DNA from: Escherichia coli
GTDB lineage: Bacteria > Pseudomonadota > Gammaproteobacteria > Enterobacterales > Enterobacteriaceae
Direction: 5' to 3' (one strand)
Assembly: GCF_016026235.1 (NCBI RefSeq)
Contig: NZ_CP065613.1
DNA length: 64,000 nt
Of the stretch, positions 45,086 to 48,182 are shown in pieces. The notes beneath the pieces were generated by a model. That model was not told the DNA's origin. It saw nothing but the letters and a program-made list of their open reading frames with translations, and did not search any database. Numbering within the stretch: the stretch's first letter is position 1; the number at the start of each line of letters is the position of its first letter. Position numbers and translations under genes: made by a program.

Positions 45086-46767
45086 AAAGGGAGGCTTTAA
45101 AAGCCTTTTGAAGTTGGCAATATTAAGCCGCATGCCATCTCGACATGCGGCTTATACTGTTTACCAGCTATATTTCACTCCCAGCATGCCCTGAGTATCG
45201 CTATAGCCTTTATCACCTAGTTGCACACCGACATTCCCCCACAGGCTAAGGTTGTTATTTACTTTCGCCTCAACCCCGGTACGTACTTCACCGAGATTAC
45301 GCGCACCATCACGGCTTACGGTTTGACCATTCATCTTCACGGCGTAGACTTTGCTATTGTTGATCCAGTTCGCTTCAATGTAAGGCTGGAACTCACGCTG
45401 TTTACCATCGTCACGCTGGTGATGGCTATTCAGGTAGGTTTTCACCCCAAGTCGCGTTTGCACGTTTCCGTCGCCTTCCGTTTCAATGCGCGTTCCGTCT
45501 TTCCGGGCATGGTCAGAATCTTTCACACCCATCCAGGTGATTTGCGCCTGTGGCTGGACGTACCAGGTATTCAGCGTCCCTTCGCTGCCGCTACATGTTC
45601 CCGCTTCAAAGGTATACCCACCCTCAACAGAGGCCGTCACACCGCGAGAATCATAGTCGTCAGCAGAACGGTTATCGGAACTGACGCTGTTATCAAACCA
45701 GTTATACAGCGCCCAGCTGTCAACATAAGCGCCGGTCTTATTCGCATCGTTCTGATACCAGGTCGCGTACAGCCCAGCGCTGTAACCGCTGATGCGCCCA
45801 TCCGATTTATAACCCACACGATTACTCTGAGTATTACTGTGCTGATTGGCGTAGCCTGCCATCACGCCAAGATGCCAGCGATCCGGCGCGTTGCTACTCC
45901 ACTGCGCCAAATCGCCGCCTAGCTGCAATACATAGCGGTTAGCCTGAGTATTTAGCTGGCCGTCTCCGGCACTGGAACGTTCGTGCCCCCCGACATGACG
46001 CATCCACATACTGCTTGCTGAATCCTGAGAATGCAGTGAATCTGTATATTGCGGCTCACCCAGACGGTCGTGTAAGCGATGGCTAAACAGCGAGTTGGCT
46101 GCGGCAATGTTGCTGATATAGCTTCCGGCCTCCGGGCGATAAACTGATGGTCCTTCCGGATCCACAACAGGGGGATTATTGATGGGATCGGGTGTATCCG
46201 CTGGCGTTACGCCGTCCCATTTACTGGTCAGATACCAGTTTTTCTCGTCATTCCCCTTCCCTTTAGCCAGCGTGTAGACGTAAGCCCCAGCTTCGACAGT
46301 TCCGGTGGTCAGCGCGAAATTACCTGCAGAATTACCGCCAACCTCAATGAGTTCAATACCGTTGACCGTTTGCGCACCGACGCCGCCAATGTTATCAACC
46401 CGAACGCGAGTGTTCCCTTGGGTATCGCCTTTCACGTTCATCTTATCGGTGGGTGAATTATCGCCGCCCAGCGTCGCGTTGAACGTCATCAGGCCATTGT
46501 TTCCGGTATAGTTGCCGTTAACGGTCAGTACATTCCCCGGTTTTCCTCCTTCACTGTTCATTTGAACCGTGCCGCCATTCTCCAGGTTGCCGCCGATTGT
46601 GGTTTTAGCGACACGCAGTGTCCCCCCAGACATAACGTTCACATCACCTGCAGTGGTGACATTTCCCGACATCACACCGCTGTTATGGATATTAATGTGT
46701 TGACTTGCCGTATTAATGGCAGAGTCGGAACCGAAAGCAATTTCCCCGTTACTTTATTCGTACCCCT

Positions 46768-46773
46768 TATAAT
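46768..46773 (+). promoter_or_regulatory. TATAAT (-10 hexamer) 13 bp inside the left end of the IS110-family element
   Basis: Consensus hexamer oriented toward the recombinase ORF; no good -35 in the adjacent flank. Confidence 0.45.
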
Positions 46774-46974
46774 GGGGTGTTAGCCAGCCAGACCCGGCAT
46801 GATTACTGCCCCCAGTCGTCCATGATCCGGGGGGTGATGTCACCGGGTCTGGTGGGGCGCTGGTAACCGCTAATAGGGGTCAGGTCAGGCACTTTTGCCG
46901 GGACCGTCTGTAACGTGGATGCCGGTACCTGCTCCCCGTGGTTATCTGGTTAACCCATATACAAGGGAGACAGA

Positions 46975-48171
46975 ATGACCGAATCCAGCGATTACGAATC
47001 CGTCCAGGTCTTTATCGGCGTTGATGTCGGTAAAGATACGCATCACGCTGTTGCCATTAATCGTTCAGGTAAACGCCTGTTCGATAAAGCATTACCCAAC
47101 GACGAAAACAAACTCAGGTCGCTAATATCTGACCTGAAACAACATGGTCAGATACTGCTGGTTGTTGATCAGCCAGCTACCATCGGTGCGTTACCTGTCG
47201 CCGTTGCCCGCTCAGAAGGAGTCCTTGTCGGATACCTCCCTGGACTGGCCATGCGCCGCATAGCCGACTTACACGCCGGTGAAGTTAAAACTGATGCTCG
47301 TGACGCTGCCATCATTGCCGAAGCTGCCCGTACCCTGCCTCACGCGCTACGCACGCTGAAACTGGCTGACGAGCAAATCGCCGAACTCTCCATGCTCTGC
47401 GGCTTCGATGATGATCTTGCCGCACAGACAACGCAGGCCAGCAACCGTATCCGCGGCCTTCTGACCCAGATACATCCGGCACTGGAGCGCGTTCTCGGTC
47501 CGAGACTTGAGCACCCGGCGGTACTCGATCTTCTCCAGCGATATCCCTCACCAGAAAAACTCGCTTCGCTGGGTGAGAAGAAGCTGGCAGCCCAGCTCTG
47601 CAAACTTGCGCCTCGTCTGGGTAAACGCCTTGCAGCAGACATAGCTCAGGCACTGGCCGAACAAACCGTCGTCGTTCCCGGCACGAATGCCGCTGCCGTA
47701 GTACTGCCACGTCTGGCACTCCAGCTCATCACGCTGCGTAAGCAAAGAGACGAGGTGGCGCTTGAGGTAGAACAGCGAGTTCTTGCTCACCCTCTTTACC
47801 CGGTCCTGACCAGTATGCCCGGAGTCGGTGTCAGGACCGCAGCCAGACTCCTCACCGAGGTCGCCTGCCGCGCCTTCGCCTCTGCCGCACATCTCGCTGC
47901 TTATGCTGGCCTTGCGCCGGTAACTCGGCGATCCGGCTCGTCAATACGCGGTGAGCATCCCTCGCGACGGGGTAATAAAGCTCTCAAACGGGCGTTGTTC
48001 CTGTCGGCCTTCGCCGCGCTCAGGGATCCGCTCTCCAGGGCTTACTACACCCGCAAAATGAGTCAGGGAAAACGACACAATCAGGCGCTTATCGCCCTGG
48101 CGAGACGACGCTGCGACGTTCTGTTCGCCATGATGCGCGACGGGACTTTTTATACCCCGCAGGGGTCATAA
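46975..48171 (+). CDS. IS110-family DEDD transposase/recombinase (398 aa)
   Basis: N-terminal VFIGVDVGKDTHHAVAIN, VVDQPATIG and KTDARDAA (RuvC-like DEDD region); C-terminal LTSMPGVGVRTAARLL...AAYAGLAPVTRRSGSS (Tnp domain with conserved Ser); RBS AAGGGAGA before the ATG. Confidence 0.9.
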   Translation: MTESSDYESVQVFIGVDVGKDTHHAVAINRSGKRLFDKALPNDENKLRSLISDLKQHGQILLVVDQPATIGALPVAVARSEGVLVGYLPGLAMRRIADLHAGEVKTDARDAAIIAEAARTLPHALRTLKLADEQIAELSMLCGFDDDLAAQTTQASNRIRGLLTQIHPALERVLGPRLEHPAVLDLLQRYPSPEKLASLGEKKLAAQLCKLAPRLGKRLAADIAQALAEQTVVVPGTNAAAVVLPRLALQLITLRKQRDEVALEVEQRVLAHPLYPVLTSMPGVGVRTAARLLTEVACRAFASAAHLAAYAGLAPVTRRSGSSIRGEHPSRRGNKALKRALFLSAFAALRDPLSRAYYTRKMSQGKRHNQALIALARRRCDVLFAMMRDGTFYTPQGS

Positions 48172-48176
48172 CATGC

Positions 48177-48182
48177 TTGACA
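48177..48182 (+). promoter_or_regulatory. TTGACA (-35 hexamer) at the extreme right end of the IS110-family element, pointing outward
   Basis: Consensus hexamer 6 bp after the recombinase stop; with the 4-bp repeat and the first 13 bp of the left end it would lie 17 bp from TATAAT in a circular junction. Confidence 0.45.

Follow-up and report, generated by a model that had tools for sequence, protein, structure and literature searches.

ISEc20 in an Escherichia coli poly-C tract: element ends, a bridge RNA and a probable hybrid promoter at the circle junction

ISEc20 and its insertion site

The stretch of Escherichia coli DNA that we analysed (the window; 64,000 nucleotides, one strand) contains, at positions 46748–48196 on the + strand, a 1449-bp element that is ISEc20, an ordinary insertion sequence of the IS110 family with an RNA-guided recombinase. 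Annotated copies, which carry the name 'IS110-like element ISEc20 family transposase', are 99.7–99.9% identical to it over their full length and occur in 1460 of the 5426 complete E. coli genomes. Durrant et al. 2024 (PMC11208160) assign the ISSfl4/ISEc20 cluster to the 'LE' type in their supplement. The host site is a poly-C tract within an autotransporter gene of the ECSE_1600 family, which leaves CCCC to the left of the element (46744–46747) and CCCCCCC to its right (48197–48203); one flanking C (46747 or 48197) is common to the element and the target. Insertion is sequence-specific, with C-runs at all E. coli sites and at nearly all sites of relatives.

The recombinase gene (46975–48171, + strand) encodes a DEDD/Ser RNA-guided transposase of 398 amino acids that scores 238.1 bits against the NCBIfam model NF033542 ('IS110 family RNA-guided transposase'; cut-off of 140). 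The protein has the domain pair of the IS110 family, consisting of an N-terminal RuvC-like DEDD domain (PF01548; 1.2e-47, residues 14–168) and a C-terminal PF02371 domain (3.7e-21, residues 277–358). As expected for this family, no inverted repeat joining the two termini was present among the 25 longest of the 35 pairs listed.

The ends of the element are fixed by empty sites, independent copies and relatives. Empty sites read ATTT-C8-ACGAT, and the occupied site in the window reads ATTTCCCC, then the element (GTTAC...GGGGCA), then CCCCCCCACGAT. Independent copies of ISEc20 match the window only within 46744–48202, with the match ending at 46743/4 and at 48202. About 80 relatives all start with GTTAC directly after a C and finish in ATAGGGGCA directly before a C, and six E. 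coli insertion sites all have the form Cn-GTTAC...GGGGCA-Cn, as do relatives at 69–95% protein identity. The left end therefore starts at G46748 (GTTACTT...) and the right end is at 48196 (...ATAGGGGCA, ...ACTTAATAGGGGCA), which are 7 bp and 14 bp, respectively, outside the boundaries proposed in an earlier note on this DNA. At the left terminus, GTTACTTTATTCG (46748–46760, + strand), GTTAC, T8 and T10 do not vary among 69 relatives. The right-end tip, AATAGGGGCA (48187–48196, + strand), is the donor sequence for the guide at approximately 46872–46880.

The earlier note had joined the ends through one copy of ACTT. Both copies are present (46751–46754 and 48183–48186) and both are internal to the ends of the element, and relatives do not conserve ACTT in their right ends; it is neither a target duplication nor a core nor a joint.

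A bridge RNA in the left end

The left end comprises 227 nt of non-coding sequence upstream of the recombinase gene and encodes a bridge RNA with a 5′ hairpin, a target-binding loop and a donor-binding loop, which bears out the leader RNA that had been proposed there. The 5′ stem-loop (46762–46778, + strand; ACCCC-TTATAAT-GGGGT) occurs at the same place in every relative, with differing sequences and lengths. Across 18 proteobacterial relatives, 100% of cells are paired and three of the five pairs show compensatory changes, a covariation score that was reached by none of 500 shuffles. RNAalifold missed this hairpin when run on the full left-end alignment, in which loop lengths vary, and the hairpin was tested separately. 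A scan of 46400–48500 against Rfam at E ≤ 1 matched no family.

The target-binding stem-loop (46783–46858, + strand) is closed by a stem in which 46788–46797 pairs with 46843–46852, as indicated by compensatory changes and by the single-sequence fold. It holds a left target guide region, TTACTGCCCCCAG (46803–46815, + strand), and a right target guide region, ATCCGGGGGGTGAT (46825–46838, + strand), the latter having a reverse complement, CCCCCC(GG), that equals the right flanks. In L085, L047, L074 and L081 the target guides have changed together with the flanks, which amounts to natural retargeting. The donor-binding stem-loop (46859–46950, + strand) is defined by alignment, fold and guide match. 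Its left donor guide region (46870–46884, + strand) holds TAATAGGGG, identical to the right-end tip, and its right donor guide region (46908–46919, + strand) holds GTAACG, the reverse complement of the left-end start CGTTAC, such that the guide at 46910–46915 is complementary to C plus GTTAC of the left end.

The motif TATAAT lies at 46768–46773 on the + strand, where the earlier note had placed it, although 20 bp rather than 13 bp inside the left end, and it forms the loop of the conserved 5′ hairpin. Because it sits within the 5′ hairpin of the bridge RNA, TATAAT cannot be the −10 box of the promoter for that RNA, as had been proposed; the hairpin is part of the RNA, and transcription must therefore start upstream of TATAAT.

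The joint between the two ends

When we queried the 5426 E. coli genomes for junctions of the right end (RE) with the left end (LE), both ends were spanned at only three places. The two that we inspected (H107 and H108) are tandem copies separated by four C, and the third (H106) agrees with them in span and identity. These natural head-to-tail junctions read TTGACAACTTAATAGGGGCA-CCCC-GTTACTTTATTCGTACCCCTTATAAT. An exact-pattern scan of metagenome contigs for an ISEc20 RE-N(0–8)-LE junction found none, and a family-level junction pattern recovered only two tandem junctions, of 2 and 4 C, in metagenomes and none in viral contigs. Among all of these assemblies (E. coli genomes, metagenome and viral contigs) we found tandem copies only and no circle junction. 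The tandem junctions have 2–4 C, a variation that suggests insertion of a second copy into the flanking C-run, and we dropped them as proxies for the circle junction.

For the circle itself, a joint of one C is best supported by the sequences, and two or three C are possible. An overlap of one C is the sole overlap without mismatch across the non-homopolymer flanks of relatives, and the reverse complement of the donor guide, CACGTTAC, has an 8-mer match only in a GGGGCA-C-GTTAC junction. With respect to a dinucleotide core, only one C shared by donor and target is demonstrable, and the homopolymeric target and tract polymorphism blur the count. Comparison with empty sites gave 4+6 C occupied versus 9 C in K-12 at the fadL-yfdF site and 3+6 C occupied versus a modal 8 C at a second site, whereas the site in the window has 11 C occupied versus a modal 8 C empty, which would correspond to three C and a 19-nt spacer between the promoter boxes considered below. 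These counts are noisy because the poly-C tracts are polymorphic at every site examined (8, 10 or 11 C at the site in the window), and a clean modal answer was obtained at two sites only; one further site (L090) has no empty allele and the tract of another (L092) is hypervariable. A two-C joint was rated less likely, as L085 fits it only with extra assumptions, and a three-C joint with a mismatch-tolerant heteroduplex core is possible, if less well supported than one C. A CA core for the guides, by analogy with IS621, was ruled out, given that CA precedes CGTTAC at no left junction.

A probable hybrid promoter at the circle junction

The element belongs to a family of circularizing insertion sequences with documented junction promoters (PMC11208160, PMC12288879), in line with the circular form that the earlier note had proposed. 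The outward-facing −35 box TTGACA is at 48177–48182 on the + strand, 14 nt from the right tip rather than at the very end as had been stated, and it is conserved in the right end: GCTTGAC followed by A, G or T occurs 14–15 nt from the right tip in 42/42 distinct relatives, with a variable stretch between this motif and ATAGGGG. The window contains 23 matches to TTGACA and 19 to TATAAT on both strands, and from these counts we estimate that a perfect hexamer less than about 25 nt from an element tip is unlikely to arise by chance (roughly 0.5% for each).

With the revised ends, the consensus promoter TTGACA-N17-TATAAT that the earlier note had assembled from these hexamers is never formed, although its broader idea of a promoter shared between the two ends still holds. 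A one-C junction separates the hexamers by 35 nt and the natural tandems separate them by 38 nt, so the true boundaries take the spacer out of the range of 16–18 bp on which the note had made its promoter depend. Its observation that the inserted copy offers TATAAT no usable −35 box holds, as CCGTTA, CCCGTT and CCCCGT stand at 16, 17 and 18 nt, and a consensus promoter scan finds nothing at the inserted left end.

The sequence comparisons indicate that TACTTT is the more likely partner of TTGACA. Our best explanation, to which we assign a probability of about 0.6, is that the circle junction of ISEc20 pairs TTGACA with TACTTT (46750–46755, + strand) as a hybrid promoter for the bridge RNA. This candidate −10 box, which contains the left ACTT, keeps T−12, A−11 and T−7 and matches the consensus at only 3/6 positions. 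The spacer would be 17 nt with a one-C joint and 18–19 nt with a longer joint (2–3 C). The corresponding hexamer in relatives is TACTAT, TACTTT or TACCTT, with spacers of 17–18 nt; when a one-C joint is applied, 10 relatives have 17 nt and 32 have 18 nt between the −35 box and the pattern TAC(T/C)(T/A)T. The would-be T−7, which is T8 of the left end, is invariant even though contiguous guide pairing stops at position 5. In the inserted copy, GGAACC occupies the −35 position for TACTTT. The consensus promoter scan found nothing at the natural 4-C tandem junction, and a literature search for promoters or circles of ISEc20 or ISSfl4, and for transcripts of ISEc20, found none; we infer the exact joint, the role of TACTTT as a −10 box and the promoter activity from sequence.

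According to this model, circularization would connect the two tips of the element by a joint of one to three C, with the guides reading the tips of the element itself (ATAGGGG... and ...CGTTAC) as well as the target C-runs. The joint would set TTGACA in the right end 17 nt upstream of TACTTT, and transcription is predicted to begin at A46762, where the 5′ hairpin starts. Transcription of the circle would then yield the bridge RNA and, when it reads through, would extend into the recombinase gene, and TATAAT would serve as the AT-rich loop of the hairpin and not as the partner of TTGACA.

Alternative explanations

The hexamers and ACTT repeats from which the earlier note started are real, and collapsing the two copies of ACTT does give exactly 17 nt. 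The resulting model (ends at 46755 and 48182, a one-ACTT joint reading TTGACAACTTTATTCG and a consensus promoter across it) is already refuted by the boundary evidence, and we give it almost no chance: the boundary comparisons (empty sites, independent copies, about 80 relatives) move the ends outwards by 7 and 14 bp, the natural RE-LE junctions, including the inspected 4-C tandems, retain AATAGGGGCA-Cn-GTT between the two ACTT copies, the repeat is not kept in the right ends of relatives, and TATAAT is inside a conserved RNA hairpin. TATAAT could instead be an autonomous internal promoter that lacks a −35 box, has a GGGG discriminator and is active in both the inserted and the circular form, giving basal levels of a 5′-shortened bridge RNA and of the recombinase, either alongside a junction promoter or in place of it. 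Perfect TATAAT motifs are few in the window, enterobacterial and betaproteobacterial relatives have −10-like loops (TATACT, GATAAT, AATAAT and TACAAT), and an inserted copy would presumably have to be expressed before its first excision. We nevertheless consider this reading unlikely, as the motif has neither a −35 box nor a TGn extension, its betaproteobacterial version belongs to the apex of a palindromic stem (CGAT-A-ATCG), Duganella and actinobacterial relatives lack the motif and keep the hairpin, and a start at approximately 46780 would destroy that hairpin.

A little less improbable, although still doubtful, is that the junction has no promoter at all, and that GCTTGAC is a recognition element for protein or RNA, or an outward −35 box that serves host genes only. 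Expression would then depend on read-through or on a different internal promoter, as in ISPpu9, the circles of which have no hybrid promoter (PMC12288879); the weakness of the candidate −10 box and the empty consensus scan of the tandem junction are consistent with this possibility. Against it stand a conserved motif that is exactly the −35 consensus and that lies just outside a donor arm of about 11 bp, as in IS621, and a distance of 17–18 nt to a TAnnnT box that is kept across Proteobacteria and Actinobacteria. In addition, the inserted context provides no −10 box for outward transcription, with CCCCAC 17 nt downstream of TTGACA. The pairing of TTGACA with TACTTT is our preferred reading.

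Relation to known junction promoters

Promoters that are split between the two ends of an insertion sequence and assembled only on circularization (Pjunc) are found in the circles of IS911, IS30, IS21 and IS492, in which their assembly boosts expression of the transposase from the circular intermediate. Elements of the IS3, IS30 and IS21 families have DDE transposases and inverted-repeat ends, and we know of no guide RNA that is transcribed from their junctions.

The closest parallel is IS621 of E. coli, in which circularization restores a sigma-70 promoter that spans the RE-LE joint (Durrant et al. 2024, PMC11208160). IS621 and ISEc20 have the same two protein domains and a left-end bridge RNA with a 5′ stem-loop, a target loop and a donor loop. 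The right end of IS621 supplies the −35 box, which lies immediately beyond the minimal donor, and its left end supplies the −10 box, an arrangement that the candidate boxes of ISEc20 parallel; by our reading of the sequences in Supplementary Table 1 of that study (PMC11208160), the end of the −35 box is 13 nt away from the right tip and the −10 box begins with position 3 of the left end. ISPpu10 of Pseudomonas putida, a different member of the IS110 family in another host, also takes its −35 box from the right end and its −10 box from the left, and the junction fragment is a strong promoter in lacZ fusions (PMC12288879); the promoter was thus demonstrated by experiment there, whereas in ISEc20 it is predicted. 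ISPpu9, from the same species and family, forms circles that have no hybrid junction promoter (PMC12288879), and the trait is therefore not universal in the IS110 family.

Given that hybrid junction promoters have already been published for IS621, related elements and ISPpu10, nothing in our reading is conceptually new. It removes a false 'perfect promoter' from ISEc20 and provides a testable map (ends, parts of the bridge RNA, probable junction promoter and predicted start) of an insertion sequence that is very common in E. coli and Shigella. Confirmation of the junction promoter would place ISEc20 beside IS621 and ISPpu10 among the elements in which the guide RNA and recombinase are switched on only after excision.

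ISEc20 differs from IS621 in several respects. It is in another clade, in which ISEc20 and ISSfl4 group with IS110 proper; it inserts into poly-C runs, where IS621 uses a REP element; its two target guides (C5 and G6) are mutually complementary; donor and target appear to share one C only, as opposed to the CT dinucleotide of IS621; and its candidate −10 box, TACTTT, is weaker than the TATTAT of IS621. We speculate, with little confidence, that a set of linked differences separates the clade of ISEc20 and IS110 proper from IS621: homopolymeric, hypermutable and possibly phase-variable C-tract targets, mutually complementary left and right target guides, strand exchange across a single shared nucleotide, and two promoters, one specific to the circle (TTGACA/TACTTT) and one a −35-less TATAAT loop for the basal expression that precedes the first excision. 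The poly-C targeting and the apparent one-nucleotide overlap could matter for the use of this clade as a source of programmable recombinases.

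Identity and ends of the element

The recombinase ORF of ISEc20 (46975–48171; 398 aa) scores 238 bits against the NF033542 profile ‘IS110 family RNA-guided transposase’ (cut-off, 140) and contains both PF01548 and PF02371 domains. Copies annotated as ISEc20 are 99.7–99.9% identical to the DNA of this element and occur in 1,460 of 5,426 complete E. coli genomes; the element splits one minus-strand autotransporter gene of the ECSE_1600 family, whose two halves form its flanks.

The earlier note had placed the ends at 46755 and 48182 and joined them through one ACTT, to give a TTGACA-N17-TATAAT promoter. 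Its motifs are present on the plus strand (TTGACA at 48177–48182, TATAAT at 46768–46773, and ACTT at 46751–46754 and 48183–48186), and its ends are displaced. Searching for the joined flanks in E. coli genomes recovered thousands of alleles that lack the insertion, and these fall short of its reconstruction by about 20 bp: the empty allele reads ...GCAATTT-C8-ACGATATCC... and the occupied window reads ...GCAATTTCCCC/GTTACTT ... AATAGGGGCA/CCCCCCCACGATATCC... (slashes mark element ends). Independent E. coli copies match the window as far as 46743/4 and 48202, a common stretch that comprises the element plus the C-runs present in every target. Six other E. coli insertion sites all share the layout Cn/GTTACTTT...AATAGGGGCA/Cn, and the same ends, C/GTTAC(T/C)... 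and ...GCTTGAC(A/G)-N5-7-ATAGGGGCA/C, recur in 84 relatives (69–95% protein identity) from Salmonella, Burkholderiales and many Actinobacteria. Because empty sites, independent copies, other insertion sites and relatives agree, ISEc20 is, on these sequence comparisons, 46748–48196. Both copies of ACTT are internal to these ends; ACTT is not a duplication or a core, and the circle would not be closed through it.

One ISEc20 copy in O145:H28 strains RM12581 and RM13514 (1139228–1140686) aligns in two pieces over 1,459 bp versus the 1,428-bp query; about 31 bp have thus been inserted or duplicated within it. A 119-aa ORF (48173–48532) starts at an ATG within the right end (ATGCTTGACAAC) and extends into the flanking gene in the opposite sense; it is probably spurious. 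A similar ORF across the junction of the pO177B3 tandem copy is annotated as a hypothetical protein.

A candidate junction promoter

In the circle, TTGACA of the right end would pair with TACTTT of the left end (46750–46755, plus strand) as a hybrid promoter, and we put the probability that this promoter is real at roughly 0.6. GCTTGAC(A/G/T) occurs 14–15 nt from the tip in 42/42 distinct right ends, whereas the stretch that separates it from ATAGGGG is variable, as would be expected of a functional outward −35 box. The candidate −10 box occupies the same left-end position as TATTAT of IS621; relatives carry TACTAT or TACCTT there, with T−12, A−11 and T−7 kept in all, and left-end T8 is invariant, yet contiguous guide pairing ends at position 5. 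Seven nucleotides downstream of TACTTT is A46762, the first base of a hairpin and the predicted transcript start. The inserted chromosomal copy has GGAACC at the −35 position for TACTTT, so the promoter would be specific to the circle.

The alternative partner, TATAAT, matches the −10 consensus claimed in the earlier note and forms the loop of that hairpin, ACCCC-TTATAAT-GGGGT (46762–46778, plus strand). A hairpin at left-end positions ~14–40 folds in all 69 distinct left ends; its sequence and length vary widely among relatives (CCCC/GGGG, CCTC/GAGG, CCTTG/CAAGG and, in Actinobacteria, long GC-rich stems). Among 18 proteobacterial relatives with equal hairpin length, all cells pair, compensatory changes occur in three of five pairs and the covariation score was reached by 0 of 500 shuffles. 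Two stem-loops with internal loops follow, in agreement with bridge RNAs as published (PMC11208160), in which a 5′ stem-loop precedes target-binding and donor-binding loops. Because the RNA includes the hairpin, it must start upstream of TATAAT, and TATAAT therefore cannot serve as −10 box for the promoter from which this RNA is made. The true boundaries also change the spacer, an outcome that the earlier note itself had named as refuting its promoter: TTGACA and TATAAT are 38 nt apart in tandem junctions joined by CCCC. The TTGACA-N17-TATAAT promoter almost certainly does not form, and its ‘perfect consensus’ is an artefact of misplaced ends. That circularization assembles a promoter from the conserved TTGACA is probably right; the partner is most likely TACTTT.

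These tandems came from a junction query of 5,426 E. coli genomes, in which only three places span both ends. Strain SMN197SH3 carries three head-to-tail copies on its chromosome (NZ_CP024056.1 1475538–1479046) and two on a plasmid (pO177B3 41296–44804); these two records were inspected, and H106, the third, agrees with them in span and identity. The joint in both inspected tandems is TTGACAACTTAATAGGGGCA-CCCC-GTTACTTTATTCGTACCCCTTATAAT. In one SMN197SH3 tandem joint, GGGGCCCCC, C stands in place of the tip A.

Hybrid junction promoters are a known kind, of which ISEc20 would be a further member. Reconstitution of a promoter across the circular junction was shown for IS621 and five orthologues (PMC11208160), and the ISPpu10 junction forms a strong hybrid promoter, to which the right end contributes the −35 box and the left end the −10 box, whereas none was found for ISPpu9 (PMC12288879). 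TTGACA of ISEc20 lies just outside the donor arm, as does the −35 box in IS621, where truncating the donor to 22 bp loses that box (PMC11208160). In the element sequences of that paper's supplement, TTGCAG is 13 nt short of the right tip and TATTAT occupies left-end position 3; their assignment as boxes is our own reading. The same supplement has the ISSfl4/ISEc20 cluster only in its phylogeny, as ‘LE’ type, and our literature search turned up nothing on the promoter, circle or RNA of this cluster.

Length of the joint

If x C join the two ends, TTGACA and TACTTT are separated by 14 + x + 2 nt; the evidence on x is mixed. Four observations favour x = 1: at the fadL–yfdF site the occupied allele has 4+6 C, and K-12, like many other strains, has 9 C; another site has 3+6 C versus a modal count of 8; an overlap of one C, and no other, accommodates every non-homopolymer flank of relatives without mismatches; and CACGTTAC, the donor-guide reverse complement, finds a perfect 8-mer only in a GGGGCA-C-GTTAC junction. 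The window's own site (11 C occupied versus modal 8 C empty) favours x = 3; 10- and 11-C alleles exist too. The C-tract at one further target site is hypervariable. Tandem junctions have 2, 3, 4 and 4 C, and thus probably arose by a second insertion into the flanking C-run. We consider x = 1 most likely, which gives a spacer of 17 nt in ISEc20 and 18 nt in 32/42 relatives; x = 2–3 (18–19 nt) is possible. In Cupriavidus laharis (~1902–1940 of L034, a relative's locus), C-GTTACTAC... comes straight after the right end and resembles a left-end start with a one-C joint, and the sequence beyond is unrelated to the element; this may be a junction remnant or an insertion beside a donor-like site.

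Guides and targets

The donor guide TAATAGGGG (~46872) is identical to the right-end tip, and GTAACG (46910–46915), when reverse-complemented, gives CGTTAC, the start of the left end; the first loop carries CCCCC and GGGGGG, which correspond to the flanking C-runs. In four relatives (L085, L047, L074 and L081) the target-loop guides depart from the C-run consensus, with matching changes in the flanks. L085 (Arthrobacter sp. S39 contig, 1,473 bp) has guides CGCTC and TGAGAG and flanks ACGCTC/ and /CTCTCA; in L047 the right guide has the reverse complement CACCCC and the flank is /CACCCC. Judged by these matched changes, the four are natural variants with coherent retargeting.

Because a homopolymer is targeted, the two target guides, CCCCC on the left (46806–46813) and GGGGGG on the right (46828–46834), are mutually complementary, and pairing between them inside the loop is predicted. 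In one relative (L077, alignment columns 140–160), 7 nt are duplicated within the donor-guide region, GCTAATA GCTAATAGGGG. The poly-C tract hit by ISEc20 in the window (46744–46747 and 48197–48203) has 8, 10 or 11 C among E. coli genomes; as 8 and 11 C keep the autotransporter gene in frame and 10 C does not, the tract may be slippage-prone and phase-variable. Tracts at three other ISEc20 target sites vary too. In Georgenia thermotolerans (L080, ~1887–1960), ~55–60 C follow the right end before unique sequence returns; this is either a target tract of extreme length or an artefact of assembly. Across relatives L010–L089, recombinases are 70–80% identical, with near-identical ends and guides in Gammaproteobacteria, Betaproteobacteria and many Actinobacteria, which implies that one poly-C-targeting clade spread widely by horizontal transfer. 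Many of these elements are stand-alone contigs of ~1,456–1,464 bp, that is, collapsed repeats.
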